Below, piece by piece: positions 32,162-63,545 of a stretch of DNA of 64,000 nucleotides; the first letter of the stretch is position 1, and each line of letters begins with the position of its first letter. The DNA comes from an uncultured delta proteobacterium. Lineage in GTDB: Bacteria > Desulfobacterota > Binatia > JACPRU01. The translations under genes were made by a program, and so were the position numbers. The notes below the pieces were generated by a model. That model had not been told where the DNA came from. It searched no databases and saw only the letters and a list, made by a program, of their open reading frames with translations. The stretch covers positions 1 through 64,000 of the forward strand of contig CAVUWD010000008.1 in NCBI GenBank assembly GCA_963745025.1. Reading direction: 5' to 3'.

Positions 32162-33290
32162 GTGCGGGCGTCGAACATCCTGCATTTGGGCGTCAAGGAG
32201 CTGCGGAGCCTCGCGCGCGATCCCGTGATGCTGGTGCTGATCGTCTGGGGCTTCACCTTCGCGGTCTACGCCGCCGCGACGGTGAAGCCGGAGACGCTGA
32301 GCAAGGCGCCGATCGGCATCGTGGACGAGGACCGGTCGCCGCTCTCGACGCGCATCTCGAGCGCCTTCTATCTGCCGTACTTCACGCCGCCGATCGTTGG
32401 TCACGCAGCAGGAGATGGACGCGCGGATGGACGTCGGGGCTCGACACCTTCGCGCTGGACATCCCGCCCGATTTCCAGCGCGATCTGCTCGCTGGGCGGC
32501 GGCCGACGATCCAGCTCAACGTCGACGCGACCCGCGTGTGACCAGGCGTACACCGGGCAGCGGCTACGTCCAGGACGATCGTCACGACCGAGGTGCAGGC
32601 GTTCGTCGAGCGCCACCGGGCCAAGATGGCGCTCCCGGTCGACCTGGCCGAGCGGGTGCGCTTCAACCCGCAGCTCACCAAGTCCTGGTTCGGCGGCATC
32701 ATGGAGCTGATCAACCAGGTGACCATGCTGGCGGTCGTGCTCACCGGCGCGGCACTGATCCGCGAGCGCGAGCACGGCACGGTCGAGCATCTGCTCGTCA
32801 TGCCGGTCACGCCCTTCGAGATCATGACGAGCAAGGTCTGGGCGAATGGGCTCGTCGTCCTCGTCGCCTGCGCCGTTGTCGCTCGTCGTTCGTCATCCAG
32901 GGCGTGCTGGCGGTGCCGATCGAGGGTTCGGTCGCGCTGTTCCTCGTCGGCGCCGCGCTGCATCTCTTCGCCACGACGTCGCTCGGCATCTTCCTCGGCA
33001 CGATCGCCCGCTCGATGCCGCAGTTCGGGCTGCTCTTCATGATCACGCTGATGCCGTTGCTGATGCTGTCCGGTGGAATCACGCCTCGCGAGAGCATGCC
33101 GGAAGCCGTGCAGATGGTGATGTTGGCGGCTCCGACGACGCATTTCGTGATGCTGGCGCAAGCGATCCTCTATCGCGGCGCCGGGCTGGACGTCGTCTGG
33201 CGGCAGTTCGTCGTCCTGTTCGCAATCGGCGCGGCGCTGTTCGGCTACGCGCTCGCGCGCTTCCGCGCGACGATCGGCACGATGATGTGA
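32162..33290 (+). CDS. yhhJ: ABC-2 permease YhhJ-like (frameshifted)
   Basis: LGVKELRSL, LTGAALIREREHGTVEHLLVMPV, ARSMPQFG, TPRESMP. Confidence 0.88.
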
Positions 33291-39643: not shown

Positions 39644-40553
39644 ATGACTGCGCCGCGCACGCCACGCGTGGGACTTGCACTGGGCAGCGGCTCCGCCCGT
39701 GGCTGGGCGCACATAGGCGTCATCCACGCGCTGGAGAAGGCAGGCGTTCGTCCAGATATCGTGTGCGGAACATCGATCGGCGCATTGGTCGGTGCCGCCT
39801 ACGCGGCAGGTGAGCTGGATCGCCTCGAAAGCTGGGTACTTGAATTGAGAATCGGGGACGTGCGTCGGGTTCATGGACGTAAGCCTGAGCGGTGGAGTGC
39901 TCAAGGGCGATCGTCTGATGGGATTCTTCCGCCGCAATTGGGCAGACCGTTCGATCGACGAGCTCGGTGTGCCGTTCGGAACGGTCGCGACTTCGCTACG
40001 TACGGGGGCGGAAGTCTGGCTGCGCCACGGCTCGACCCTCGACGCCGTGCGCGCCTCGATCGCCCTGCCAGGGTTATTCGCCCCCGTGCGATGGGAAGGA
40101 TCGTTGCTGGTTGATGGCGGTCTGGTCAACCCTATACCGGTGTCGCTGGCGCGCGCGATGGGCGCGGATATCGTGATCGCAGTCGACCTCGGGTCCGACA
40201 TCCTGGGCCGCCGATTTCGCGCGGCCTCGGCACCGGAAGCGGCGGCCGGCGCCGTTCCCAACTGGATGCGCAAGCTAAAGGAACACCTCAGCGCGCTCGC
40301 ACCCGAGAAGTCGCCTGACGAACCCGCAATGCCCTCGATCCTCGACGTCCTGACCACATGCATGGACATCGTTGAGGTGAGGATTGCCCGCAGCCGCATG
40401 GCTGGCGAGCCACCGGAGGTGGTTGTCGCACCACGGTTGGCGCGCCTTCGGCTGCTCGATTTTCACCGGGCGAAGGAAGCGATTGAGGAAGGTCATCGCG
40501 CGGTGGAGCGAGTCGCTCACAATCTTGCTGTGCTCAACGATCATGCATTGTGA
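39644..40553 (+). CDS. rssA: Patatin-like phospholipase, RssA family (one indel)
   Basis: [26 protein letters not shown]. Confidence 0.88.
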
Positions 40554-40632
40554 CCGCGGCAATCCGGAACTGCCGCGTGCGATTTCGTGATGATCCTGAA
40601 ACAAGCGACCATCATCCGTGTCGGAGAATGAA

Positions 40633-40659
40633 ACCACGAAGAACGCGAAGTTCACGAAG
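40633..40659 (+). repeat. Three degenerate 9-bp units nnC(A/G)CGAAG
   Basis: accacgaag aacgcgaag ttcacgaag. Confidence 0.6.
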
Positions 40660-40668
40660 AGAACAAGA

Positions 40669-40735
40669 ACCTGCCCAGGGCGGAGGCCGGGCACGAAGGC
40701 GCGCCAATAATGGTACTTCGGCCCGACTCGTCGCG
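40669..40735 (-). pseudogene. glgX: Short glgX remnant
   Basis: KYHYWRAFVPGLRPGQV versus [17 protein letters not shown] in the full glgX. Confidence 0.6.
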
Positions 40736-40808
40736 CGATAGAACGGATCAAACCACTCGGGACCGGCCCGCGTAACCATGGCCTCTGCGCGGGCCAGCGC
40801 CACCTACG

Positions 40809-41633
40809 CTATCTCGAGTAATCGATCAGCTCGGTAGTCGTGACGGTGCTCATCCCGGGTGCGCCGCGTGTGCCAGTGCCCGCGCGATTCGTGCCGAGAT
40901 CGCTCATGCCACCCGTCTCAGCTTTCGCCTCCGCCTTCACCATCCCAATACCCTTGACCAGCCAGTATGTGGAAGTCGTGTGCGTTGTCATGCCGGACAT
41001 CGTCGCGGCCGGCTGGTTTCCGTCGTTTCTGTTCACCTCGGGTATCGGTGTGCCAATTTCGTTTTCGGCGGTGATCTTCAGCGCCTCGAACGTCCCGGCG
41101 GGAACAGTCACTGACTCTGTACCGTCCACCTTATGGCGCGTCTTTATGTCGAAGATCAACGGTTCCGTGCTGGCCATCTCGATCGTCTCAGTTGTCTTCC
41201 AGGTGTAGCCAGCCTTCAGCTTCAGCGCGGGCGGCAGGAACGAGCCGGAGTGCCTCACGAACTTCACATCCGTCCCCTCGCGATCCTCTCCTAGCTTCGT
41301 GAAGTCGAGTGAGATCGCTCCACCGTCGCAATCGACCTCCATTTGCAACTTCTTTGCCGGCTCGCTTTTGTCGTGCATCCACGCAATCGCGACAGTCGCC
41401 TTGTCCTTATTGACGCTCTCGACTTTCCAAATCGACTCGTGGCCATTGGAGGACTTGTAGTGACGGGTGAGGCCCTTCCTCAGCGGCAAGTAAGGATGAT
41501 CACAGGCGGCGTCTGCAGCAGGACCCGAGAAGAGCGCGGCGGTGACGAGAACAACGGACGTGAACAACAGTCGCACGATACCTCCAATCTTGCGTGTCCG
41601 AGGAGGGCGAGTGCGGGCCCGCGCTCCCGGCAA
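40809..41633 (-). CDS. Secreted beta-rich protein with VTVPAGTF motif (TapB/DUF3108-like); start uncertain
   Basis: Signal peptide, HPYLPL, ESVTVPAGTFEALKI, YWLVKGIGMVK. Confidence 0.7.
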   Translation of the reverse strand: MPGARARTRPPRTRKIGGIVRLLFTSVVLVTAALFSGPAADAACDHPYLPLRKGLTRHYKSSNGHESIWKVESVNKDKATVAIAWMHDKSEPAKKLQMEVDCDGGAISLDFTKLGEDREGTDVKFVRHSGSFLPPALKLKAGYTWKTTETIEMASTEPLIFDIKTRHKVDGTESVTVPAGTFEALKITAENEIGTPIPEVNRNDGNQPAATMSGMTTHTTSTYWLVKGIGMVKAEAKAETGGMSDLGTNRAGTGTRGAPGMSTVTTTELIDYSR

Positions 41634-42813
41634 AAGTGGTTGTAACTCGCTTGCGCGCGGGCGGCGTCTTGGGTCGCGAGCGCCGCGTCGCGCTGGACGG
41701 GGTCACGGCCTTTCTCATCTCAAGCTCGGCAACGTTTCTCCAGGTGCTTTTCGCGCCGTCTCGCGCGGTCGGCTATGTCCCTGAGTGGGTACCGAAAGCC
41801 TTGGCAGCTAACACGCATGAGCGCGTCGGCGGCATAATCCGAACCACAGGCTCCAAGCAGATCGCCTTGTGGCTGCGCGACGGCCTGTCTTCTCATCTTC
41901 GCTACCTGGCTTCTCGTGTTCGAGAGCTGACCCCCATTCGCCAACGGCATGATCGGCCATCATCCCCTTACGATTTCGTCCAGTATATACCGTGCTTGAT
42001 ATTTTCGACCCAAACGCGGCCAGCCGAGTCCTGGAATCGCCTATAACTCCATTGGCAGCCTTCATCGAGGAGTCGTCCGGTGACGGTACTTCCCAACCGT
42101 CCTGACACAGTCCGGTTTTGCGCAACTCCGGGTGAGTCGGCTGATCGGGAGTTCGGCCACTTGGCCAGATTGTAGCATTCCTGCTCTTTCGCTACTCGAT
42201 CAACGGACTGGGGATTGGTGGCAGAAGGTTTCGCCATCTCTTCGCTGGGTAATGCTGCGGGCAGCCGTGCCTGAGAACCGCGCCAGATCACCGCGTCAGC
42301 CGGGGGGCCTGGCCCTTGTTCCGCTGCCCCAGGCCGATCGACGGGTCGAACGCGGTGCGCCGCTCCTACTTCAGCGGCGAGGTGCAACAGCTGGACGAGC
42401 ACGAGCGTCTCGCCGCGCGCCAGTTCATGCTCGAGCAGCTCGAGCGCGCGGGAGTCACCGAGGTCGACCCGCCTTTTACCACGCCGGCGCGAAGCGAGTC
42501 GCTTGCTTGCCGTCGTCGTAGTGCTTCGTGATCGCGCCGATCGAGGTCTTGCTCGCCGAGGGAGCCCGAGCGCGAGTCGGTGCGCATGATCCTGCACGAG
42601 ATCGGGCACGCGATCTCAGATCTGCCGGTGCGCGAGTCCGGCAAGTCACTCGCTCGGCTCGAAGCGGACGGCACTGTTCCAGAAACCTCGGGGCGTGAGC
42701 AACACGCCGAGTCAAGGCGTTGTCCTGTCTTTGTCTACAAGAAACGAAAGAGGCACCGGGCGCTATCTGTTAAGATAGCGCCCGGCTCTTCTTGTTCCGC
42801 CAAGTCGAGATAC

Positions 42814-43029
42814 TTAGATCGTGTCATGGTCGGGACAAGGCGCATCGGGCCGATGGGCTTCCGGCGATCTCTGCCCACGGAGAACCTTCCGAACGTTCTC
42901 AAGCGACCACGGCCTCTGCTGGAGCGTCTGCCAGCCGTTCTCGTTGAGGCGGCTTGCGATATCGGCCGGGGACAATCCTGCGGCCCCGAGCTCGCGGATG
43001 ATGCGGTGAACGTATGCAGATAACAACCT
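42814..43029 (-). pseudogene. C-terminal tail of a second large serine recombinase
   Basis: IRELGAAGLSPADIASRLNENGWQTLQQRPWS versus ARKLAAQGLRPCEVGRRLNELELFTKTGRPWT in 46522-48375. Confidence 0.65.
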
Positions 43030-43687
43030 ACTGTTCTGGGTACTCTCCCCACGATCTATATGCGAAGTCCACGGTTACGTCATGCAAGTTGCTTACCCTG
43101 GCGGGCGTGCTGCGCAGATCCGGTGCCCCGGGCTGAACCTAAAGGGTGGGCCTACCTGCATTACGCTGCCGGCGGGGCCTCTTGAACGCAGCATCGTCCC
43201 GTTGGCCCTGGCGCATCTGACGCCGGTCGGCATCTCGATTCTTCGCCAGGAATGGGAGGATCGAAAGAGGGGGAACAAAGAGCTGGCGGGCCTATCGGCG
43301 GAGACGCTCCGCCTGGCGAAGGAGCGGCTCAAGCGGACACGGCTTCTCTTCCTCGCTTGTGATCCATCCCGATCATCGAGAAGCCAATGCCATCCTTGAA
43401 ACTGAGCTCGACAACCAAGCTGCCGAAGTAAGACGGCTCGAAGAGGCTGTTCAAGACGATCAAGGCGAGCGTCCCGATTCCTTCAACGGGGCGGTGTGGA
43501 ACGAGATCGAACGCTTGTGGTCTAACGTAGCCGCGATTTGGGCCGCGTCCACGACGACCGTTGCGGATCGAATCGAGTTACTCGCAGCAATAATGGAACG
43601 CCTGGTTGTGCGACGGGATCGAGAGCGAATTTGCGGCACGATCGTGTGGCGAGACGGCACAGCAGGGACGCCTTTCGAAGGCAGGTT
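43030..43687 (+). pseudogene. Zn-ribbon/coiled-coil part of a second large serine recombinase
   Basis: ICEVHGYVMQVAY..RC..PTC..LAHLTP..CDP..LETEL..IWAASTTTVADRIELLAAIMERLVV..IVW parallels the intact recombinase. Confidence 0.7.
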
Positions 43688-43768
43688 TCATCGTGACCGA
43701 AAAGCGTCGCCAACCCCTGTCCCACAAGGCTTTCAGCAACTCACCCGCCCTTCACGAGCACACACACT

Positions 43769-44570
43769 TTGGAGAAGACCCACTGCAGATGGGAGGATCC
43801 GGTGGGTCTGAAGGAAAAGAGCGCGGATGTAGGACGAGCGCCCGCGCCGAGAAGAGCCACAACAGGGCGTTCCGACCTGATTGAACGGCTATCGCGCGTC
43901 GGGGTCTTCGGCATTGGGTCAGCCGGTCCGCCAGACGCTTCTGAGCTGCAGGAGCTCATACGCGAGGTCGAGACGGCCCTAGTTGAGCAGCCGACCCTAG
44001 AACTCCGCTATCGGCTTGCGACTGCGATCATGACATACGTATTCTTTCACGTCCGAGGGGACGCACGAGTACTTTGGCTGAATCGCGCAGACGGACTCTT
44101 GCGACAGGCCCTCGCGGAGGCCGAGCGCCTCGGTTCAGCGTCGCCGGTTGCGCTGCCAGAAGTCCGCGCCGTGTTGTCGCGGCTTCTCGTGGAATCGCCG
44201 ACCGTCCGCGATCTGGCGACAGCGGAGAAGCAGCTGCGTGCGACCTGGAAAGAGACGACTGAGTACCGACCGGAATTGTGCTCGCTTGTAAGTGCCGTCT
44301 ATAAGCAAGGGCGCTATGCCGAAGCCGCGGAACTGGCGCTGGAACTGCACCAAAGAGCCACAAAAGACAGCGAGTGGTGCGACAACCCGCCGCCCGCCGC
44401 TACAGCTCGCAGTTAGTGCACTGCGAGCTGAGGTGAGACGACTGAAGAAAGCAAACGACGCGCGGGCTGCCCGAGCTGTCTCCGAGCGACTCTGTCGTCT
44501 GCCCTATGCGAGTGACAATGATCGGAGGATCCTCGAGCGACTTCGCGTGGAATCTCCGGCAACGGCCTGA
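43769..44570 (+). CDS. Hypothetical alpha-helical (TPR-like) protein, one apparent frameshift
   Basis: Amphipathic helices, VYKQGRYAEAAEL; continues in ORF 44292-44570. Confidence 0.5.
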
Positions 44571-44938
44571 ACGTGCCAAGTGGGTCGCGTGAAGCTTCGG
44601 AGCCACGCCCAGCCACGACCCGAGGCTATGACGCTCAAGCCTACGATACGTTTCGAGCGCACTTCAATTAGACCAAGCTCGCTGAGCTCGACATAAACCG
44701 CGCTTCTGGATGGTCGTCTCCAGGATGATTGACAGCCAGCGTTTTCTCTTCTGCTCGGCCGAGCGTGCGATTCGGTTCGATCGAGAGCCCGATGTGTCTC
44801 AACAAAGAACGTCCTCACTTGCCCGAGATGCCGACTGCGAGAGCCATTAGATCATTCGCAGTCAAACTGTGAGCATCGTTCATACTGAGTGCGCACTACC
44901 TCCAAAACCGCTCTTTCATTGCGCCGCGCAAACTTTAG

Positions 44939-44967
44939 TAAACAAAAACCATTCGCTGCGCCATAAT
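44939..44967 (+). promoter_or_regulatory. Putative sigma70 promoter
   Basis: TAAACA-17 nt-CATAAT in an AT-rich patch. Confidence 0.5.
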
Positions 44968-45002
44968 AGTAGATAGATAGGACCGAAGGCCGAGGTCTGT
45001 CT

Positions 45003-45046
45003 GAAGCCCCGGGAGGAATGCTCCTCTCCGGGGCTTTTTTTCTTTC
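45003..45046 (+). terminator. Intrinsic terminator/attenuator-like hairpin 1
   Basis: aagccccggga..tccggggctt followed by a T-run. Confidence 0.7.
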
Positions 45047-45095
45047 TCGGCCACAACAGGTCGCCGCCAGAGGGCGAGCGATCGGGAGGTGAGTC

Positions 45096-45251
45096 ATGTC
45101 CAGAGTCGTTTGGAAGAGAGTCGGAGAGGTAGTGCTGGATGTCCTTGTGGTGGCGGTGGTCATCGTGGCGACTGCCCTCGTAGAAAAGCTCGCACGAGCG
45201 GTGGGCGACTTCGGCTCCGGTGGTGAGATCGATGAAGGAGAGAGACCGTAG
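45096..45251 (+). CDS. 51-aa single-TM small protein (absent from the ORF track)
   Basis: SD GGAGGTG; MSRVVWKRVGEVVLDVLVVAVVIVATALVEKLARAVGDFGSGGEIDEGERP*. Confidence 0.6.
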   Translation: MSRVVWKRVGEVVLDVLVVAVVIVATALVEKLARAVGDFGSGGEIDEGERP

Positions 45252-45329
45252 GCCCACCAACCGTGCACCAACGTAGCAGCGACGATCGGTGAGCGCTCAC
45301 GCACTCACCGATTGCCAGGTCCACCAACC

Positions 45330-45371
45330 GAAGCCCCGCCGGGAACACCCCGCGCGGGGCTTCTTCTTTTC
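45330..45371 (+). terminator. Intrinsic terminator/attenuator-like hairpin 2
   Basis: gaagccccg..cggggcttc followed by ttctttt; same stem as hairpin 1. Confidence 0.65.
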
Positions 45372-45388
45372 GCAATCCGGAGGTGCGA

Positions 45389-46141
45389 ATGCGAGTAACC
45401 CTTGTTCGAAAAAGCGCGAACCGAAAAACCGGGTCCATCCCAGTCTCGATGAGCCCGAAATCGACTTGTCCTTTGACCTGTCCACTTCGGAGAAATGGCT
45501 GCTACGCCGAGCATGGCCCGGTCGGCTGGCATTGGAAGCGGCTCTCCCTTGGCGACACCGGCATCAGCTGGAAGGCATTTCTGGAGAACGTCCGACACCT
45601 ACCGAAAGATACGCAATGGCGCCACAACGTCGCAGGGGATTTACCCGGCCGCGGCGACAAGATCGACACGGAAAGACTCGCCGAGCTCGTCGAGGCAAAC
45701 CGCGGTCGGCGAGGCTTCTCGTATACGCACAAGCCTGCGCTCCCCGAGAACCTGGCGGCCATACGACGAGCGAACCGCGCGGGATTCACGATCAACCTAT
45801 CGGCCGACAATCTGGCCGAAGCCGACGAGCTCGCCAGGAAGAACGCGGGCCCGGTCGTCGTGATTCTTCCGGCCGACGCGGCTTACAACCACGTCGAGCG
45901 GACGCCCGCGGGGCGGAAGGTCATCATCTGCCCGGAGAGCTACCGCAACGACGTCACCTGTGCTTCCTGTCGGCTCTGCGTAGACGCGAAGCGCGAGACG
46001 ATCATCGGCTTTCCCGCCCACGGGCCAGGATTTCGAAAGGCCGAACGCGTGGCGCTCGCGGGGAAGGGAGGTGACAATGCCCTACGCGTCCGTTTACCGG
46101 ATTTCCCTGGTCCGCGACGGACGGCTACCGTACAAGACTAG
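45389..46141 (+). CDS. Cys-rich mobile-element protein (DUF7227/gp88-like, possible Fe-S protein)
   Basis: SD GGAGGTG; SANRKTG, CPLTCPLRRNGCYA, WRHNVAGDLP, FSYTH, GFTINLSA, CPE..TCASCRLC..IIGFPAHG. Confidence 0.7.
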   Translation: MRVTLVRKSANRKTGSIPVSMSPKSTCPLTCPLRRNGCYAEHGPVGWHWKRLSLGDTGISWKAFLENVRHLPKDTQWRHNVAGDLPGRGDKIDTERLAELVEANRGRRGFSYTHKPALPENLAAIRRANRAGFTINLSADNLAEADELARKNAGPVVVILPADAAYNHVERTPAGRKVIICPESYRNDVTCASCRLCVDAKRETIIGFPAHGPGFRKAERVALAGKGGDNALRVRLPDFPGPRRTATVQD

Positions 46142-46319
46142 GCAGTCGAATGACGTCGCGCACTGCGTGAGGCCGCCTTTGAAGGGCGTCGACCGGGAGC
46201 AAACCGAGATTACGCGCAGGCTTCGCCGGGGGGGCGACGTTATCGGCGTTCGCGTTTTGGACGACGTAATCATAGGCGCCGATGGCCATCGGAGCTTCGT
46301 TGGCGCGGGCTACTGCTAA
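46077..46319 (+). pseudogene. radC: RadC/JAB remnant with internal deletion
   Basis: YRISLVRDG..VDRE joined directly to EITRRLRRGGDVIGVRVLDDVIIG; the HNHPSG metal motif is missing. Confidence 0.7.
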
Positions 46320-46456
46320 TCCGAACAACCGAACGCAGCCGCAGACGACCGAGCTTCCGGTTCAGCATCAAAGTTTCCGCCTGAATCGATCAATCGATCC
46401 CGTCTCCGTCCCGCCCGCCACATCTCCAAGTCTCGTCCTTCGGCTTTCCATCCATG

Positions 46457-46500
46457 ACCGGCAGCAGCGCGAACTCTATACGGCTCGCGTTGCTGCCGGT
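46457..46500. repeat. 16-bp inverted repeat just downstream of the serine recombinase stop
   Basis: accggcagcagcgcga-12 nt-tcgcgttgctgccggt. Confidence 0.75.
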
Positions 46501-46521
46501 CCCTCCTTCTTTTTTTGCTTC

Positions 46522-48375
46522 TTACTGCAGAAGCGGACGGTCCGTATCGCTGCCTGGAGCGGCAACGCCGGTAGGTGGCTTTAGTGTGTTGACTTTCTTG
46601 TTCGTCACATGGCGCAGGAGCTGCGAGGCTGTCCCTGCCGTCCACGGTCGACCTGTCTTGGTGAAAAGCTCTAGCTCGTTTAGTCGACGCCCGACCTCGC
46701 AGGGGCGGAGACCTTGCGCGGCAAGCTTACGGGCCTTCCGTTGAGTGAACGGTGGAAGAAGGATTGTGAGTTCGTGGTCCGGCTCGTCGTCGACCCACTT
46801 GATCCGGAGGCGGATTGTCTCGTTCGTCCGCTCGAGGACTGTGACGCGCTCGACCAGAGCACGGATGACTTCCTTTCGCTCCTCATTGGTGGTCGTCTCC
46901 GCCATGAAGATCTCGAGGAGCTGGTCGGCGATCTCAAGAAGGCGGTCGAGAGCGGTGTCGTCAAATTTCAGGATCTCCTGTCGCTCATTCTCTACCGCCA
47001 GCTTGACCTGCTCGCGATTGTCTTTGACCTCTCGCAAGGCCTGCTCAAGCTCCTGGACCACCTCGACGTTCGTCGGGTCGACGATCCTCACTCTGTAGCG
47101 GAGCTCCTCAAGCTCCCTCTCGAGGGCGTTCATTTGCAACCGCCGCAGGTGCTCCCCCGCGGCGAGGTCTCGCCGTGCTCGGTCAAGCGCTTCGCGGAGA
47201 GCATTCAAGCGCGGAGCCGTGAGGCGTGCGAGAACGGCGTCTCGAATGGCCGGATCCACCCGTCGGGCGGGTACGCTGACGCAAGACCGGCGGCCGCGGT
47301 CTCGCTCGCCCTTACAGTAGTAGGCGGGCGCCCGGACGCAGTCAGTCCGAGCATCGCCGTAATGGATCATCATCCGCCTGCCGCCTTGCGTGCCGACATG
47401 AACGGGGCAGTCGATGAGCCTCTCTAGGAGGGCCGCGCCGCGGCCAGCGGGTCGACCGTCGCCCTTCTTTGTATTGTCGTCGAGGATCTTCTGTATCTCG
47501 AACCAATCCTCGGTCGAAACGTAAGCCTCGTGATGCCCTTCGATGACAATGCGCTCTTCCCGAGGGGTCGGGATGCGACGAACCCGCCCACCCGGCGTCT
47601 TTCTGGCCGGATCGATTTGCGATTTTCCGAATTCGTACGCGCCCGTATAGGAGAAATTGCGATAGATATCGAGCAACAGGGACTCATTCGCTTCTGTTGG
47701 CCCCTTCCTGCCAGGGAACCGCATACCGAGGTCGTTGAGCGCACGGATCGTTTTCCCCACGGAACGGAGCTTGAGGATCAACTGGAACGCGGTCCGCAAG
47801 GACAGCTGAACCCACGTTCTCGGATCCAAGGCCCAGGTCTTCTGCATGTAGCCCATCGGGGAGCGGGTGACTGACTTTCCCGCCTTGGCTTTCGCGACCC
47901 GCCCCCGGCGCATCGTCTCGGAGCGATAAGACGTGTCGATGTCCGAAACGACGGCCATGAGCTTCGCGTAGACCAGATGCCCCGACACGCGCATGTCGTA
48001 GACGCGGCCATCGAGGGCCACGAGCACGTCGAATGCGGCACAGATGTTGAGAAGGTGAAACCAATTTCCTGCTTCGCGTCCGAGGCGCGTGAAGTCGACG
48101 GCGATGAGGATCCCGACTTTGCCTTCTTGGATCAGCTGTATGATCCTCTGATAGCCCTCCCTCAGAGCCGTTGTTCCCGACACTCCGAGATCCTCGATGA
48201 CGAGAATCAGAGTCTCGATCCACCCCCAGAGGAGGGCGTACCGCTTTTGATTACGCTGTGCCTCCGTGCTGCCGGTATTATTTTGAACCTGGAACTCCGT
48301 GCTCTGCCGGACGTAGACGATCGCGAGACGATTCAGATGCTGGTCCTTGATTTCTTGAGGCCTCGATTCGGGCAC
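46522..48375 (-). CDS. Large serine recombinase (resolvase + recombinase + Zn ribbon)
   Basis: AIVYVRQST (catalytic Ser), EDLGVSG, TRLGR, YTGAYEFG, GHHEAYVS, CPVH..YYC..C, coiled coil. Confidence 0.92.
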   Translation of the reverse strand: MPESRPQEIKDQHLNRLAIVYVRQSTEFQVQNNTGSTEAQRNQKRYALLWGWIETLILVIEDLGVSGTTALREGYQRIIQLIQEGKVGILIAVDFTRLGREAGNWFHLLNICAAFDVLVALDGRVYDMRVSGHLVYAKLMAVVSDIDTSYRSETMRRGRVAKAKAGKSVTRSPMGYMQKTWALDPRTWVQLSLRTAFQLILKLRSVGKTIRALNDLGMRFPGRKGPTEANESLLLDIYRNFSYTGAYEFGKSQIDPARKTPGGRVRRIPTPREERIVIEGHHEAYVSTEDWFEIQKILDDNTKKGDGRPAGRGAALLERLIDCPVHVGTQGGRRMMIHYGDARTDCVRAPAYYCKGERDRGRRSCVSVPARRVDPAIRDAVLARLTAPRLNALREALDRARRDLAAGEHLRRLQMNALERELEELRYRVRIVDPTNVEVVQELEQALREVKDNREQVKLAVENERQEILKFDDTALDRLLEIADQLLEIFMAETTTNEERKEVIRALVERVTVLERTNETIRLRIKWVDDEPDHELTILLPPFTQRKARKLAAQGLRPCEVGRRLNELELFTKTGRPWTAGTASQLLRHVTNKKVNTLKPPTGVAAPGSDTDRPLLQ

Positions 48376-48554
48376 GATTGGTTCCTCCTTTCGTTCTCGA
48401 GCACCTTGACTGCGAGGCGAGCGAGGAGCCGCTCTGCTCGATTGAGCGCCTCGCTCCCCAGAGAGGGTTCTGCTGGTGGTGCCGGAGCGGAGCTCTTGGT
48501 CCGCGCCCGGGCTCGCTTGGATGGATCCATCGATTCACCTCCTGGAAGAAGCAA
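48333..48554 (-). CDS. Small hypothetical protein overlapping the recombinase start
   Basis: EALNRAERLLARLAVKVLENERR helix; contains the AGGAGG SD of the recombinase. Confidence 0.4.
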   Translation of the reverse strand: MLLPGGESMDPSKRARARTKSSAPAPPAEPSLGSEALNRAERLLARLAVKVLENERRNQSCPNRGLKKSRTSI

Positions 48555-48650
48555 AGAGCGGAAGGGTCGCGCGCCGACGCCGAGGCGCCAGGCGTACCTC
48601 TCCCGCCCGTGTTCACCGAGAGTATGGCGCGCGCGCCGGGGATCTTTAGG

Positions 48651-48702
48651 TTCCGGTGCATTTCCTAGGTAATTCTCGAATTAGGCCTGAGATGCACCGG
48701 AA
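48651..48702. other. 52-bp dyad resembling a serine-integrase attP site
   Basis: TTCCGGTGCATTTCCTAGGTAATTC-TC-GAATTAGGCCTGAGATGCACCGGAA; 25-bp arms, 19/25 positions symmetric. Confidence 0.6.
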
Positions 48703-48723
48703 TATTCCGCGGCTGTTCGACGC

Positions 48724-49311
48724 CTATGCATCCTTCTTCGCTGACGCTTTCAGCAGCAGGCGGGTGAAGGTCTCAGCCAGGGAACTCACGGCGTGCAGCA
48801 GATTAGGGTCCGGAGGTCGCATGGGTGTGGCTGCGACGTCGACATCCCCTGCCGCTGCATCCGCTGATGCTTCGCCGGTAGGGCGTGGCTGCTTTCTGGA
48901 AGGGCTGTTCGGTGTCGAACTCGATGGGGAAGGGGGTCGGCGCGACACGGCGCTGGGCGCCCCGCCGTCGCCGTTGTCCTTATTGGGAGGATTGGGCTCA
49001 GGGTGATGATCGCCGTCGGACGGGCGAGCATCGCCAACCGGATCGTCGGCATTGCTTGCCAGTGGTGACATGACGCGCTCGGCCACCGTGGTGGACGTCG
49101 TCGCCAGCGGCGGCGTCGTGGTGCTCGGCGAGAGAGGCTGGTCTGCTCTGGGCGGAGCTTCAGTTGCTTCCCTCACGTGGCGATGGACGTGCTCATGGTG
49201 CTGTTTTCCGCCGAAGGGGAGGGTGCCTTGGCGCTCGCGATGCTGATCACGCTGCGAATCGCCGATGATGCTCGAGCGAGTGAGAGAAGTACGGCGATCT
49301 TTAGCGGCCAT
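48724..49311 (-). CDS. Hypothetical, largely low-complexity protein
   Basis: ATG overlapping the end of the AlpA ORF; Pro/Ser/Thr-rich with a C-terminal helix. Confidence 0.4.
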   Translation of the reverse strand: MAAKDRRTSLTRSSIIGDSQRDQHRERQGTLPFGGKQHHEHVHRHVREATEAPPRADQPLSPSTTTPPLATTSTTVAERVMSPLASNADDPVGDARPSDGDHHPEPNPPNKDNGDGGAPSAVSRRPPSPSSSTPNSPSRKQPRPTGEASADAAAGDVDVAATPMRPPDPNLLHAVSSLAETFTRLLLKASAKKDA

Positions 49312-49903
49312 CGCCTACTCCGCCGTCCCCGCCGCCAACCTGACGGCGCTCCTGGACCCACCTATCGACCTCGGTCCGGAGCCAGCCGACGCTTCGGGAC
49401 GAGATCTTCCTCCTCGGAGGGAAGAGCCCGCGCTTCTCCGCCCTCCAGACGGTGCTTCTGGCGAGCCCCGTTATGGTACGAAGTTCCTTGAAACGGACGT
49501 AGCGGTCCCCGTCACCATCTTTTGGATGAGGGTGGGCCGCCTCTGAGTCTCTCGCTACGTTCTCTGTGGGGAGGAGATTCTCTTTGGAGACAAGGTGGCG
49601 GACGTAGTCCTTCAGGGCGGTGATCGACCTCTCGAAGGCCTTGGTCAGCTCGCGTTGCTGCTTCGCGAAGAGACGCTCGACCTCTTCCAGCGAGACGGCC
49701 GTGGGGGACTTCTTCGGGGCGGGCGCTCCTAGTCGTAGGGCACGCGACCTGCCAGAAGCCGGCGGTACAGAAGCCGCGTCATAGACGGTACCCCCCCCGG
49801 CAGCGTCATGAACTCTACGGCGAGAGTCCGCTTCTTGTGCTGGGTTGCCGGGATTTACGCTTCCAAAGGAACAACCTGTGCTGGGCATTGAACGCTCCCA
49901 CAA
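49301..49903 (-). CDS. alpA: AlpA-family regulator/excisionase with N-terminal extension; start uncertain
   Basis: RYVRFKELRTITGLARSTVWRAEKRGLFPPRRKISSRSVGWLRTEVDRWV. Confidence 0.8.
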   Translation of the reverse strand: MWERSMPSTGCSFGSVNPGNPAQEADSRRRVHDAAGGGTVYDAASVPPASGRSRALRLGAPAPKKSPTAVSLEEVERLFAKQQRELTKAFERSITALKDYVRHLVSKENLLPTENVARDSEAAHPHPKDGDGDRYVRFKELRTITGLARSTVWRAEKRGLFPPRRKISSRSVGWLRTEVDRWVQERRQVGGGDGGVGDGR

Positions 49904-50093
49904 CAGGCGTCCTTCGGTTTTCCCGACCAGACGCGGATTTCAGCCCTTATCGGCGGCCGCTACCGTGTTGCTAATAATCAAATTACCCGCTGAGCGGAAC
50001 TTGGTCAAGGAAACGTGGTGCCGCTCGTGCGAGCGGACTCTTATGAGAGCGAGAGATACGAAGTGAACAAAAGGTAGACCTGATGTCTGATAT

Positions 50094-51305
50094 TCAGACC
50101 GCGGCCTCGAGCGAGATCACGTTCGACGGCGTCTTCGTCCGCGTCCCTGCGATGATCTCGCGGAGTTCCCGATCCCATCTTGTAAGGGCATCCCGCTTGT
50201 CCGCGTCGTAAGAGTGGCGATCGTAGATCGCGGTCACGCCCTGCTCGACGTGGTTGAGGATCTTGGCGACCACGAGCCGCGGGATCCCGATAGAGGTCAT
50301 GTAACTTGCGGCCGTCCGCCGAAGATCGTGCGGCGTGAAGTTAGGGATCCCAAGATCGTCGACACTGCGTCGAACGGCATGATCCGGCGCGGTGGCGCCC
50401 ATATGGTCCTTCTTCGGTGAGGGAAAGACCCACTGCGAGTCTTTGGCAAGCTCGCGCGCCTCGCGGAATAGCGCGATCGCTTGTTGGCCCAACGGAACAC
50501 GGTGGGGGAGTTGGTTCTTCACGCGCTCGGCGGGGATGGTCCACCATCCGTTTGCCAGGTCAATATTTTCCCACCGCGCTGATACGATCTCGCCCTTGCG
50601 CTGAGCGGTCACCAACATGAGCTTCAACACGATCCTGCTCGCAGGACTCATCGCGGCTTCATCGAGAGTTGCCCAGAACAGCCGGATCTCGTCGGGGCTC
50701 AACACTCGGTCGCGCCGATTCTCCTTCCCGGGCGGCTTGACCTGCGTGCATGGGTTGGCCGGGACAAGGTCGCGAGACAGCGCGAAGTTGAACATCCTCC
50801 TCACCACGGCGAGCGTGCGGTTGGCCGCGATGGGGGAGCCGCGATCGACGATTCGGTCGAGCAGCGCGATGACGTCCGACCGTGTGATTTCTTTCGCCTT
50901 GCTCCACCGCCAGAGTGGCAGAATGTCCTTTTCCAGAATCCGCTCGTCCTCTCTCCACGATCGCTTTCGCGGCTTCGCCCAGCGCTCGAGGTACTCCGTC
51001 GCAAGGTCTCCTACGGTTGGTGCGGTGCGATCTACCCGACGCTGCCGAACGATCGCGGCGCCGGGATCGAGGCCCTGCTCGAGGTCGGTGAGCGCTTTGC
51101 CGTGAGCTTGGTGAGCATGAGCGACCGTCATGGAAGGGTAGGTACCCAGTGTCATGCGGCGTGAGCGGCCTGCATGATGGTAGACGAACACCCACGACTT
51201 CGTGCCGTTCGGCGTCACACGGATGCCGAAGCCATTGCCCTCCCAAAACTCATAGCGAGCGTTCTTGACCTTTAGGTTCTTGATGGCCCTGTCCGTGAAC
51301 TTCAT
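50094..51305 (-). CDS. P4-like tyrosine integrase with arm-binding domain
   Basis: GFGIRVTPNGTKSW, LGTYP, TAQRKGE, VKN..HRVPL, HDLRRT, ILNH..TAIYDRH. Confidence 0.95.
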   Translation of the reverse strand: MKFTDRAIKNLKVKNARYEFWEGNGFGIRVTPNGTKSWVFVYHHAGRSRRMTLGTYPSMTVAHAHQAHGKALTDLEQGLDPGAAIVRQRRVDRTAPTVGDLATEYLERWAKPRKRSWREDERILEKDILPLWRWSKAKEITRSDVIALLDRIVDRGSPIAANRTLAVVRRMFNFALSRDLVPANPCTQVKPPGKENRRDRVLSPDEIRLFWATLDEAAMSPASRIVLKLMLVTAQRKGEIVSARWENIDLANGWWTIPAERVKNQLPHRVPLGQQAIALFREARELAKDSQWVFPSPKKDHMGATAPDHAVRRSVDDLGIPNFTPHDLRRTAASYMTSIGIPRLVVAKILNHVEQGVTAIYDRHSYDADKRDALTRWDRELREIIAGTRTKTPSNVISLEAAV

Positions 51306-51320
51306 CTTGGTCCGTTGGTC

Positions 51321-51343
51321 TGGGGTAGCAATTGGGGTAGCAA
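51321..51343 (+). repeat. Direct repeat TGGGGTAGCAA x2 (putative integrase arm sites)
   Basis: Perfect 11-mers at 51321 and 51333. Confidence 0.7.
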
Positions 51344-51484
51344 AATTGACGTTGCAATGCATGAATTTCTGTGAGACATCGTGAAACAAGAAATACCATA
51401 TAATTACCGATAATCAAAGGCAAATGAGTCTGTTCATTGACACCTATTGAATAGTCCTGAACGGCTAAGAAACAACGATGAGAT

Positions 51485-51530
51485 CTGATTCGTAATCAGC
51501 AGGTCGCCGGTTCGATTCCGGCGGGTGGCT
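51485..51530 (+). other. att core: 3' half of tRNA-Thr(CGT)
   Basis: ctga-ttCGTaa-tcag anticodon arm, gccgg-ttcgatt-ccggc T arm, gggtggc acceptor strand; no 5' half upstream. Confidence 0.85.
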
Positions 51531-51537
51531 CTTTCAA

Positions 51538-51550
51538 AATCAATGATTTA
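51538..51550 (+). promoter_or_regulatory. IHF consensus site
   Basis: AATCAATGATTTA matches WATCAANNNNTTR. Confidence 0.6.
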
Positions 51551-51581
51551 TGTTACAGCCACAGATCGGAAGGAGCTTTTC

Positions 51582-51600
51582 AGGTAGCAAATAGGTAACA
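51582..51600 (+). repeat. Arm-like repeats AGGTAGCAA / AGGTAACA
   Basis: Share the GGTAGCAA core of 51321-51343. Confidence 0.6.
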
Positions 51601-52028
51601 CGCAGCGAGTATGGATCTCGAGGTTGACGAAGGAGATTCCCTCCGATCTCGATCTCGAGTACCGATTCCTGTGCGCTCCCCGGCGCGCCCAGCATGCGCC
51701 GATGATCCCGATTACGAATCCGCAGGGTGGCCGTCCGCCGACGTCCATGGCGTCGCAAGCCCTCGGAAATCCCAAGGTCTTCAATCCGGTATTGTCCAGC
51801 TAGTCTGCTGGTGTCCATTGGCTTGGCTGTCAGCGTGGCTGTCAAACTACGCGGCTGATCTGGATGCGCCACCTCTCGCTACCTCGGCGCGAGCGCGCGA
51901 TGATGAGGAGCCGCTTTCCGCCGCGTCCACGTGTTCCAACGTTTGAAATCCAGGTGTTCGCGTTTCGCACATTCACTGCTATCGCCTGAATTCAGCGGCC
52001 TTGGCGGCCAACTTCCTGTACTGCTTGG

Positions 52029-52628
52029 GTGCGCGTCGATCGGCCCGCGGTCGCGCCGGCCGCGGGCACCCGCCCCTCCGCTTCCTTCGTCGAGCCGGAG
52101 ACGCTTGGCCGCATGCAGGGGCGGCGCCTGTTCGTGGCGGAGCGCGCGGACGAGCCGGTCGCGTTCTGCGTGCTTTCGCCGGTGCCGCGACGGAACGGCT
52201 GGCTCGCCGAACAGATTGTCCGCGGGCGACGCGCGCCGAACGGCACGGCGGAGCTGCTCGTGGATGCGGCGCTCCGGGCTGTCGCTGCGGAAGACGCAAC
52301 GTTCTTCACGCTCGGTGGTGCCTTCCTCTCGAAGCGCGCAGACGCCACGCAGCCGCCACCCGGCTGGCTCCGCCTCGCCTTCTTCTGGCTCCGCCGGCAC
52401 GGGAAGCGCTTCTACAACACCGGCGGCCTCGAGGCCTTCAAGGCCAAGTTCCGGCCGATCGCTTGGGAGCCGCTATACCTTGTGGCGAACGAACGCCGCA
52501 TGCGCCCGAGCGTCGTCTACGCCGCCGCGGCGGCGTTCACCGGCGGGTCACCGGCGCTCGTCGGCGCGCGCGGGATCGCGCGCGCGGCGCGGATCGAGCT
52601 CGGCTGGGCGCTCCGCGGCCGGTACTGA
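52029..52628 (+). pseudogene. Aminoacyl-PG synthase C-terminal (DUF2156) domain, 5' truncated
   Basis: RRLFVAER, APNGTAELLV, FYNTGGLEAFKAKFRP..WEPLYL. Confidence 0.7.
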
Positions 52629-52718
52629 CGACGCCGGCGGCGACGATTCGGGCCCACGAACGCTGTGGTTCGTCAAGTGCGCCTCGACGCTGATAACCGA
52701 TCGGCTGGAAAACATTAG

Positions 52719-53903
52719 CTAGAACCTGTAGTCGGGCAGCTTGACGTCGTCGCGCACTGTGCAACCGATGAAAAGATCGGCGATGAAAGGAATCCGCAAT
52801 AGTCGGCTGACAAGGTTGCGGAACGCGATGCCGAAGGCCCTCCTCGGCGCGAACGAGGAAGCGAATCTCACTGCCGACTCCTGCTTGCGCTTCAGAAACG
52901 GCATCATCCGCTCCTGATAGCGGGCGAAGGCTGCGATGTGATCGTCCCCGCAGCCGTGCAGTTCGCCTGCGAGAACATAAGCCTCGGCCATGGCAAGCCC
53001 AGTCCCTTCGCCGGCAACGAGGGAGACGCAGGCTGCAGCATCGCCGATCAGTGCTGTGCGGCCTTTTGTCCAGCAGTCCATGCGGATCTGGCTGACACGG
53101 TCGAAATAGACGCCTCTGGCATCGTCCATTGCCGCGAGAATCCGGGCGCATTCCCAGCCGACATCGGCAAAGACGTTTGTCAGCACCGATTTGCATTCCT
53201 GCTCGCTCGATGGACTTTCGGCGGTCAGGTACTCGTCGCGGAAGACGAAAAGAAACAGCGTCATGTCATCGCGCAAGGACAATCGCAAAATTTGTCTTCC
53301 CGGAACCGCGTGGCCGACAGCTACGAACTCATCGCGTGGCCGGTAACCGTCGACCTCGAACGCGGCGACGTGATAGCCGAGCGAGACTTCGAACTCTGAT
53401 TCAGGCCCGAACACTAGTCGGCGAACACGCGAATGCAACCCGTCCGCTCCAATGACCAGATCGACCTCGCGCGGAGCGGCATGATCGAAGTCAACCCGAA
53501 CGCGATTGCCCTCATCCTCGATCCTCGCTACGGAGTCGCCGAAAATCGTCTCGACCTGTCCGTCCAGCGCATCGTAGATCGTGGCGGCAAGGTCGGAGCG
53601 CCGCAGCTCGGTGAAGCGGCCGTTCGTCATACGGTGGAAGACGTCAACCGAGAAGCCGCCGCTCTTGCGGCCATGCCGGTTGACGTAGCGCACCTCCCTG
53701 ACCTGATAGCCCACCTCTCTGATTCGGGGGAGTAGACCCATCTTCTCGGCGATGTCGTAGCCGACCCCCCAGAAATCGATGGCATAGCCGCCGCTGCGAA
53801 GCTGTGGCGACTCTTCGATGAGCAGCACCTCATGACCGGATTCCCGCAGCCAGTATGCGAGTGTCGGACCGGCGATGCCGGCCCCGTTGATGGCAATTCT
53901 CAT
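52719..53903 (-). CDS. FAD-dependent monooxygenase/oxidoreductase
   Basis: GAGIAGPTLA, DLVIGADGLHSRVR, LIGDAA. Confidence 0.9.
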   Translation of the reverse strand: MRIAINGAGIAGPTLAYWLRESGHEVLLIEESPQLRSGGYAIDFWGVGYDIAEKMGLLPRIREVGYQVREVRYVNRHGRKSGGFSVDVFHRMTNGRFTELRRSDLAATIYDALDGQVETIFGDSVARIEDEGNRVRVDFDHAAPREVDLVIGADGLHSRVRRLVFGPESEFEVSLGYHVAAFEVDGYRPRDEFVAVGHAVPGRQILRLSLRDDMTLFLFVFRDEYLTAESPSSEQECKSVLTNVFADVGWECARILAAMDDARGVYFDRVSQIRMDCWTKGRTALIGDAAACVSLVAGEGTGLAMAEAYVLAGELHGCGDDHIAAFARYQERMMPFLKRKQESAVRFASSFAPRRAFGIAFRNLVSRLLRIPFIADLFIGCTVRDDVKLPDYRF

Positions 53904-54052
53904 GTACGCCCAGTCAGCCCGACTCCAAATTGACCTCAGATGTGCAACCATCGCGTAGAAGATGCAGTCCGAATATCATTCCATTCGTTCTCCTCACCGG
54001 CCTTGATCGTTCGGCGAGAGCAAGCGGACGCCCCTGCGGTTCGCACTCTCAG

Positions 54053-62632: not shown

Positions 62633-63545
62633 TCACTCCGCGTTCCTATGTGCCTTCGCTTTTGATAGCGCTTCGAAGCCGGAGATGACGTCGAACAGTT
62701 CCTCGTCGATGCCACTCTGGCGCAAACGGTGGAATGTCCCGTTGAGGTTCTCCAGCAATTCGTCGATGTTTTTGTCGGCGCGTTGCATCGCCGCCAGGCG
62801 GCTCGCGTTCTCGCTCGCGAGGGATTCGGCGCACGCCCGGAAGAGCGAGACGAAAAGATATTCGCGGATGAGCGCCCGCAAGGTCGCGGTGCCGCCACCC
62901 ATGACCTCGGGCAAGTTTCTCGTCGGCCAGGGAAGTTCGGCCAGCTTGCGTCGCCAGTTGCTCGTCCAGCGGCAGCAGCCGCTGACTGACGGGCGCATAG
63001 AGCGCCCCGGACGTGCGGGCGGTTGTGGAAGAGGTGGAGCTCGGTGACTTCACCCTTGGCTCGTGGCGCGTCTCGCTCTCGACGAGAATCTGCCCGACGA
63101 GCGGGGTGATGGCCTTGACGGAATTCGGCACGGTGAAGAGTCCGATCAGCGGCAGGCCCGCGTCCGCCAGGCGCGCATGAACGCGCTCACCGACGGCCCA
63201 GACCTGGGGTTTGCCGGGCAGAGCGGCCAGGGTCTTGATCGCATAATCGGCCACCACGTCATTGAACTGGCCCACCAGTCCCTGGTCGGAACCGAACACG
63301 ACCGCGCCAATCGCACCCGCATCGGTTTGTCCTTTCCGTTCTGCCATCAAGGCCGCCGGCTCGCTTTCCCGAAAGCATGCGCCCAACCCCAGCTCCACGG
63401 TCCGATAGTAGTCGGCCAACGCGCGCACCGATTTCTCGTATTGTCCGATGCTCGAGGCGGCCAGGGCCTTCATCGTGCGGACGACGGATTGGAGATCACC
63501 GGCACTGCTGATCTTTCGGCGCAGGCTCGCCGTGGTGTCGCTCAT
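62633..63545 (-). CDS. atpG: Alternative (N-type) F1F0 ATP synthase gamma subunit (frameshifted)
   Basis: LQSVVRTMKALAA, FGSDQGLVGQFN, SLASENASRLAAMQRA, RQSGIDEELFDV. Confidence 0.9.

Follow-up and report, generated by a model that had tools for sequence, protein, structure and literature searches.

We describe a compact recombinase module in a 64,000-nucleotide stretch of DNA from an uncultured delta proteobacterium of the class Binatia (positions 1 to 64,000 of contig CAVUWD010000008.1, assembly GCA_963745025.1; hereafter the window). In this stretch a 52-bp palindrome lies upstream of the gene for a large serine recombinase (LSR), and together with its neighbours it forms a five-part module that is carried intact in chromosomal islands: an excisionase-type helix-turn-helix (HTH) gene, a gene for a small acidic protein, the dyad, a micro open reading frame (micro-ORF) and the LSR gene. 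Our tentative reading of the palindrome is that it is the LSR's own attP-type binding site, retained whole within the module, with auto-regulatory parking of the enzyme as its minimum role. The parts that concern us first are the following.

48651..48702, no strand assigned: dyad-symmetric 52-bp site with 25-nt arms and its centre at 48676–48677; a homologous site is present in relatives
46522..48375, minus strand: large serine recombinase, 617 amino acids (Pfam PF00239 and PF07508, invariant columns, profile match, model and fold search)
48333..48530, minus strand: micro-ORF, 65 amino acids, ATG at 48530, with its own Shine-Dalgarno sequence (alignment in 9/9 loci; complex model)

The sequence-only reading, an earlier account of this DNA, had described two 25-bp arms around a central TC, and both the coordinates and a complementarity count verify this. 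The gene-proximal arm, towards the LSR, occupies 48651–48675 and the other arm 48678–48702, and the two 25-nt arms are complementary at 19/25 positions (76%) around TC, the central 2 nt. As had been stated, symmetry is perfect over the outer 11 bp and the inner 6 bp; of the 8 arm positions in between, six rather than five are unmatched (12 and 15–19 counted from the outer end). The palindrome is located 276–327 nt upstream of the LSR gene start, in an AT-rich region of a genome with 66% G+C. Allowing up to 5 mismatches, each arm matches this genome (20 contigs, 5.65 Mb) at this one place, and the outer 11-mer has one further exact match, at position 253378 of contig C11, which is expected by chance alone.

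Palindromes with at least 19/25 complementary positions and a centre of 0–4 nt occur three times in the window; 100 first-order Markov simulations of it contained 0.28 on average and 4 at most, and 18 of them contained at least one. On symmetry alone, the palindrome is thus only moderately unusual, which is not enough to carry the finding; what puts it beyond chance is that related recombinase loci have such a site in the corresponding position. Another of the three, with a 3-nt centre, lies at 32243–32295 near an ABC-2 transporter gene.

Judged by its domain set and predicted fold, the LSR is a complete integrase-type large serine recombinase, and Pfam, invariant columns, the profile and the model all bear out the earlier assignment of this 617-residue protein. 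It comprises a catalytic domain (Pfam PF00239, E 2.5e-16; R23, S25, R97 and R100 invariant in 12 aligned sequences), a recombinase domain (DBD1; PF07508, E 4e-17; in the model a helix at 132–164 followed by a domain at 187–303), a zinc ribbon (ligands C323, H326, C354 and C365 invariant in the 12 aligned sequences) into which a coiled coil is inserted, and a further helix-turn-helix at the C terminus. The coiled coil is modelled as helices 387–431 and 437–469, giving a hairpin at 387–469 within the zinc-ribbon region. Pfam PF13408 does not match this LSR, although many relatives carry it, and the model, with a mean pLDDT of 82, has low confidence at 304–362. The family profile matches the SPbeta integrase (9dxh) over positions 67–523 (E 7e-23), and full-length structural matches include the SPbeta, phiC31 and Bxb1 integrases (E 4e-18 to 1e-9), with the LI integrase also among the best. 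The best database relative is 56% identical, and 31 proteins reach E ≤ 1e-3 among the 8000 candidates scored; plasmid relatives are only 27–32% identical, and none of 50,697 phage records holds a relative at E ≤ 1e-30. Elsewhere in the window, a 70-residue open reading frame (ORF) on the minus strand (42814–43026) is similar to the Pfam Recombinase domain in its helix-turn-helix portion (E 4e-06) and is 38% identical to the C-terminal tail of the LSR (residues 539–588); it may be a stand-alone relative of the extra LSR domain or a gene remnant.

The LSR clade, defined by E ≤ 1e-60 and with members at 31–39% identity, was found in 10/401 genomes sampled from the class, the present genome included, and in 1/401 genomes of the phylum sample, which is again the present genome. 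Wider sampling of the order (2/8 genomes) and of two families (2/18 and 2/19) added no new locus, and pattern-based scans of genome contigs and viral contigs gave no closer LSR relative with DNA context. A metagenome scan returned 35 loci, with longer matches mostly at 24–31% identity, and these were left out of the analysis. All ten upstream regions of the clade follow one layout, in which the HTH gene comes first, then the small acidic ORF, an AT-rich dyad and a micro-ORF that overlaps the start of the LSR gene. Similarity clustering identified the excisionase-type HTH_17 gene in five loci, and inspection by eye added a sixth. The acidic ORF, whose product has an amphipathic helix at its end, is present in 9/9 aligned loci, and so is a micro-ORF with a conserved ten-residue helix motif. 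Beyond the module, conservation extends only to one divergently oriented gene in four loci, and the module flanks otherwise differ completely. This divergent gene, which matches no Pfam or PHROG family in the four relatives, encodes 330–470 amino acids and points away from the HTH gene:

L072, 12384–13373, minus strand: divergent gene
L073, 12839–14227, minus strand: divergent gene
L074, 6533–7945, plus strand: divergent gene
L075, 11977–13275, minus strand: divergent gene

It is absent from the window, where a tyrosine integrase occupies that side. In a genome of the same genus (G001), the HTH gene is missing and the dyad is degraded (spacing 23); the surroundings of the locus (L071, G001:C2:112000–131999) are a patchwork in which a TIR-domain gene and disrupted genes of type I restriction systems alternate with transposases and pieces of tRNA-Thr.

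A common 8-nt core occurs as an inverted pair at the same place in 7/10 loci (7/9 relatives), with its two copies 23–24 nt apart and the pair 130–208 nt upstream of the LSR start. The core pairs score 13–15/16, which is equalled by 0–4 of 300 shuffles, and at a threshold of 13/16 the pair is unique across 3.1–9.5 kb in five of the seven loci; the other two each have one extra pair, inside coding sequence. One of these candidates, a second core pair in G225, was rejected as a site, being inside a coding region and lacking extended symmetry. The site in the window is a variant of the core, with the shared part one base closer to the axis on each side. The two arms vary in concert, such that G066, G253, G225, G051 and the window locus each have their own variant or outer extension on both arms, and such concerted variation within a locus is the mark of a symmetric dimer encoded by that locus. 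Among the viral contigs, core-pair matches at 39 loci were attributed to chance, none having an LSR relative within 3 kb.

The symmetry is concentrated 13–25 or 26 bp from the axis, in the window site as well as in seven relatives. Across nine loci, complementary positions at 13–25 number 12, 9, 12, 7, 8, 13, 9, 10 and 3 of 13; at positions 1–12 they number 6, 5, 6, 6, 6, 6, 4, 5 and 1 of 12, a total of 45/108 and a modest enrichment. For the LI integrase, PMC3783163 places the motif read by the zinc-ribbon domain (ZD) at positions 16–24 in attP and 11–19 in attB, and assigns positions 1–12 to the recombinase domain (RD). The dyad sites thus have attP-type rather than attB-type spacing, in a comparison of positions rather than of contacts, and it is the length of about 50 bp together with the conserved block at 13–25 that makes the structural analogy to attP hold. 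With the axis set by the outer cores, the central 2 nt are TC in the window and non-palindromic in five relatives, palindromic in two, and of odd spacing in one.

The micro-ORF lies between the site and the LSR gene, with its end reaching 42 nt into the latter, and it is a real gene, because the codons under its helix motif differ synonymously between loci. Its product belongs to no Pfam or PHROG sequence family and found no usable match in a protein atlas. A model of the LSR in complex with the micro-ORF product scored 0.69, compared with 0.02 for the best of three controls, with at least 92% of contacts common to the runs and a partner pLDDT of at least 57. The mark for such models, which this one passes, is reached by 116/157 solved complexes and by 2/215 mismatched pairs, and is a rough one here, since custom alignments were used. 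In the modelled interface, the conserved helix 24–49 of the micro-ORF product packs against LSR residues 381–400, 467–507 and 527–529, which form the coiled-coil base and the neighbouring helices of the zinc ribbon. According to PMC11722253, directionality factors of unrelated sequence share a binding site at the coiled-coil base, and a fusion of the SPbeta integrase with its recombination directionality factor (Int-RDF) sits on attP as dimers, which underlies a block to integration. The model therefore supports, short of demonstration, the idea that the micro-ORF product binds the LSR where directionality factors act. In three loci on rhizobial and methanotroph plasmids (L124, L125 and L126), with LSRs 27–29% identical, inspection by eye suggests a short frame about 100 nt upstream encoding a similar leucine-, alanine- and arginine-rich helix. 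None of three distant plasmid-borne loci examined has a strong upstream palindrome, and the micro-ORF may be much more widespread than the palindrome.

In the relatives, the site also coincides with the start of the operon. The in-frame ATG of the micro-ORF is 22–26 nt from the axis in 7/8 relatives with a site (by eye), which puts it at the outer edge of the gene-proximal arm, and that arm, not the distal one, carries a conserved extended-minus-10-like element 6–10 nt upstream of the ATG. The position of the ATG and this element suggest that the micro-ORF/LSR message of the relatives may be leaderless and start inside the site, in which case the operon would be silenced by whatever protein occupies the site.

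The mechanism that we propose starts from the LSR as the putative binder, whose dimer would bind both arms, with its zinc-ribbon domains reading the conserved outer block 13–25 bp from the axis and its recombinase domains the inner part. As the site is at the 5′ end of the micro-ORF/LSR operon, binding would presumably act as repression, and occupancy would shut the operon as a form of auto-control. The micro-ORF product, co-translated with the LSR, would behave like a directionality factor and clamp the base of the coiled coil, locking the attP-bound dimer in a non-integrating state, so that the site would stay unrecombined.

The intact state of the site is a consistent observation. The site is unbroken in 8/8 relatives in which it was located, with the HTH gene on one side and the LSR gene on the other, and the intact loci of G001, G051, G059, G176 and G075 lie inside contigs of 90–855 kb. 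Integration between the HTH and LSR genes would leave those genes at opposite ends of the inserted DNA, each beside a hybrid site. Ordinary chromosomal genes are found within 0.4–3 kb of the module in G051 and G176, and in both of these a peptidyl-prolyl isomerase (PPIase) gene, syntenic in the two genomes, is no more than 0.4 kb from the module, whose orientation is reversed between them; four relatives have no tyrosine integrase within about 10 kb. None of the insertions seen has the palindrome as its joint, and no evidence of recombination at it emerged. The earlier proposal of an intact attP awaiting use is supported in part, by the site's size, dyad symmetry, outer-motif position and conservation beside the LSR gene, and in the window by its non-palindromic 2-nt centre; no sign that it is awaiting recombination was found.

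A search for half-sites split at the TC, as the same proposal had suggested, found no attL or attR form, no second copy and no attB-like candidate. An attB-like site modelled by shifting the outer block inwards by 1–7 nt, a crude model, was not found in the genome at up to 7/32 mismatches. The negative result for attL and attR rests on a small sample of relatives. A comparison of G059 with same-genus genomes, as a source of empty sites, showed that they share none of its 20 kb except repeats. The flanking DNA of G051 matches one other family member only, downstream of the PPIase gene that flanks the element; orthologues of this gene occur only in G176 and G249 with no shared synteny upstream, the two PPIase-proximal spacers do not align, and G051 has no convincing terminal repeats. 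Contigs from four read runs placed on 41500–53500 contained no bridging record and no joint at the site, with low and patchy cover that makes them uninformative; among the eight read runs listed, the best contained 0.16 of the words, and none was an RNA run. Since the attB partner is missing, no integrase-site pair for engineering, which the sequence-only reading had anticipated, can be named.

The residence of the module in the window can be explained by a different enzyme. All genes of the locus are on the minus strand, in the transcription order tyrosine integrase, AlpA-type HTH, acidic ORF, palindrome, micro-ORF and LSR, and the remaining parts are as follows.

48724..49311, minus strand: low-complexity acidic ORF, 195 amino acids as called, with no Pfam or PHROG family matched; its stop is 21 nt from the palindrome, and its C-terminal helix is shared with the small ORF preceding the site in relatives
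49301..49903, minus strand: AlpA/excisionase-type helix-turn-helix protein (Pfam PF05930, E 2.1e-15; PHROG excisionase/regulator)
50094..51389, minus strand: P4-type tyrosine integrase with arm-binding, central and catalytic domains (Pfam PF00589, PF13356 and PF22022)
51485..51534, plus strand: 3′ fragment of tRNA-Thr(CGT), 50 nt from the anticodon arm to the acceptor end (sequence match; the whole gene is at 21439–21512 of contig C14)

The AlpA-type protein occupies the slot held by an HTH_17 protein in relatives and has no tblastx match to these proteins. The tRNA-Thr(CGT) fragment is the attachment scar at the right end of a tyrosine-integrase island; ARAGORN found no whole tRNA in the window, where the left end of the island was not found either, and the second half of the window has the lower G+C (about 0.61, down from about 0.68). 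Eight further partial copies of this tRNA are scattered over five contigs of the genome:

C8:101608, C8:149678, C8:150319, C7:108191, C7:133285, C19:28546, C15:18130 and C14:19984: further tRNA-Thr(CGT) 3′ fragments

Such fragments are numerous in relatives too, including the same-genus genome G001, which suggests repeated insertion and decay of islands targeting that tRNA. Because the module adjoins the P4-type tyrosine integrase and the tRNA-Thr fragment, the palindrome is not the joint of the present insertion. The sole clearly recognisable cargo gene of the island encodes a DUF7227 protein (45383–46141, plus strand, convergent with the LSR gene; Pfam E 9e-88, PHROG function unknown).

A second 52-nt palindrome (46453–46504, 18–19/25 complementary) sits just past the LSR stop. 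It was considered as a partner recombinase site and rejected, since its GC-rich stem and plus-strand T-run (z −6.75) are those of an intrinsic terminator, which serves the plus-strand genes convergent with the LSR gene.

46456..46501, plus strand: intrinsic terminator, a GC-rich hairpin followed by a T-run (fold z-score −6.75 on the plus strand)

In the region 48200–49400, a terminator scan and a consensus scan for sigma-70-like promoters both came back empty, and there is no U-run beside 48651–48702 on either strand. An Rfam search of 40000–54000 returned nothing relevant.

The assembly is a metagenome bin, 92.65% complete with 7.6% contamination and several split genes. Patatin (39644–40553), an ABC-2 permease (32397–33287) and ATP synthase gamma (62636–63545) are each split into two adjacent ORFs that match successive parts of one Pfam model, as frameshifts or assembly errors in the bin would produce.

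Several observations weigh against the LSR as occupant of an attP-type site. Dyad symmetry by itself is significant in only 3/10 loci, namely the window (12/13, 0/200 shuffles), G051 (12/13, 1/200) and G225 (13/13, 0/200), and in the other seven the best dyad is insignificant and, in six of these, lies elsewhere. The symmetry of G075 is weak, and G050 has no site in the 245 nt of upstream sequence held by its contig. The core shuffle test is partly circular, because the 8-nt core was derived from the same loci, and the core is more conserved than would be expected for LSRs that are 31–39% identical; the HTH proteins, which are better conserved (52–60%, tblastx), could be the binder, and the 50-bp LSR-type footprint is deduced from geometry alone. 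G051 and G066 have a palindromic centre, a property that would be undesirable in a polar crossover site. The argument from promoter overlap rests on the relatives, because the micro-ORF of the window is distant from the site, starting 146 nt downstream of the axis behind a strong ribosome-binding site of its own, and because no promoter was found in 48200–49400. The result of the complex model may reflect likeness to solved integrase–RDF complexes, and custom alignments went into it; the quality of the bin leaves room for small sequence errors inside the palindrome.

That the site is a working attP, through which the LSR module or island leaves as a circle and integrates at an attB elsewhere, with the copies seen being ones currently not integrated through it, we consider unlikely. 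Its size and motif position are of the attP type, its place immediately ahead of the LSR gene is the one found in known serine-integrase phages, its centre TC is non-palindromic, the LSR is complete with its coiled coil, and the modelled directionality-factor-like partner would imply att-site logic; the tyrosine integrase at the tRNA-Thr scar can, moreover, account for the chromosomal residence of the present copy. However, the split state, in which an integrating element spends most of its time, was seen in 0/8 located relatives, and the four relatives without a tyrosine integrase within about 10 kb have no such enzyme to explain their residence. The genome also lacks a second arm (up to 5 mismatches) and an attB-like site under the shifted-motif model (up to 7/32 mismatches), and the 50,697 phage records lack an LSR relative at E ≤ 1e-30. 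We find it distinctly doubtful that the site is instead left unbound by the LSR and serves the excisionase-type HTH protein encoded upstream (of AlpA type in the window and HTH_17 in relatives) as an operator or promoter element. The site's other invariable neighbour is the HTH gene, whose product is more strongly conserved than the LSR, as would fit a well-conserved 8-nt core, the two cores are about three helical turns apart, and overlap with the operon start in relatives suits an operator equally well. Yet the symmetry spans about 50 bp, reaching 25 bp from the axis, which exceeds the usual cover of a small winged-helix dimer, and a related site is kept in the window even though its AlpA-type HTH is unmatched by tblastx to HTH_17.

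Another possibility, to which we give little credence, is that the module is a resident docking platform rather than the integrase of its own element, made up of a chromosomal attP-type site, the adjacent LSR and a directionality-factor-like micro-protein translated from the LSR message. If this were true, it would capture circular DNA with a matching attB-type site and release it through an excision bias, as a serine-recombinase counterpart of the integron platform, and all copies seen would represent the empty state. It is highly improbable that the palindrome is a resolution or exchange site at which the LSR recombines two identical copies, on element dimers or on two carriers of the module, with the product identical to the substrate. 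One intact copy per genome would then be the resting state, in likeness to res sites. Each locus does have a single copy, always intact, immediately upstream of the recombinase operon and overlapping its start, and the module flanks differ completely between loci; against this, coiled-coil integrase-type LSRs are known to block recombination between like sites, according to PMC11722253, no locus with two copies was seen, and none of the three distant plasmid-borne relatives examined has such a palindrome. Least probable of all is an RNA hairpin, acting as terminator or stabiliser at the 3′ end of the upstream ORF's transcript. The site does begin 21 nt past the stop of that ORF, its fold has a z-score of −2.56 on the transcribed strand (4/200 shuffles as good) and −3.45 on the other strand, and concerted changes in the arms would also keep the pairing. 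Nevertheless, no U-run follows on either strand and the terminator scan of 48200–49400 is empty, the 24 nt between the cores are mostly unpaired in relatives, the arms keep the same sequence across loci and not merely their pairing, and the region is AT-rich in a 66% G+C genome, quite different in appearance from the real terminator 2.2 kb away.

Our preferred explanation, an attP-type site bound by the LSR and kept intact at the head of its operon, has parallels in known systems. As with serine-integrase attP sites (Listeria A118/LI, phiC31, Bxb1 and SPbeta), the site is about 50 bp long, an imperfect dyad with a 2-nt centre beside the integrase gene, with its outer block in the zinc-ribbon reading zone (16–24), and the enzyme fold is alike. 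In contrast to those systems, the site has no known attB, attL or attR, none of its chromosomal copies examined is split, its outer core is common to enzymes only 31–39% identical, and it overlaps the operon start in relatives. Res-type sites, such as those of Tn3 and gamma-delta TnpR, lie upstream of resolvase genes and double as operators. They share with the present site the placement of a recombinase site at the promoter of the enzyme's own gene, one copy per element and unchanged by the reaction, but they combine small serine recombinases with a three-subsite res, whereas here a single attP-type dyad accompanies a large coiled-coil enzyme. Similarly, the micro-ORF product resembles directionality factors such as SPbeta SprB and phiC31 gp3 in being a small protein modelled on the coiled-coil base and zinc-ribbon domain. 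It differs from them in having no sequence family and in being encoded just upstream of, and overlapping, the integrase gene, and its synthesis would therefore be tied to that of the enzyme instead of being induced on its own. The window also shares with P4/CP4-57-type islands a tyrosine integrase, an AlpA gene and a tRNA 3′ fragment in their usual neighbourhood; unlike in those islands, a complete LSR module follows AlpA, and the other end and the whole tRNA gene lie outside the window.

The module is compact, occurs in bacteria of soil and sediment, and is apparently undescribed; the literature, as judged from listings and abstracts, yielded no account of one like it, which is not proof of absence. 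For recombinase tool-building, it follows that a palindrome beside an LSR gene is insufficient to name an attP/attB pair. What defines the module is an LSR that is preceded by a conserved micro-ORF and that would maintain, where its operon begins, an unbroken site of the attP type. If the micro-protein is truly a directionality factor made together with its enzyme, the module would contain a built-in lock on integration, and the micro-protein itself, at about 40–65 amino acids, would be a very small candidate switch.

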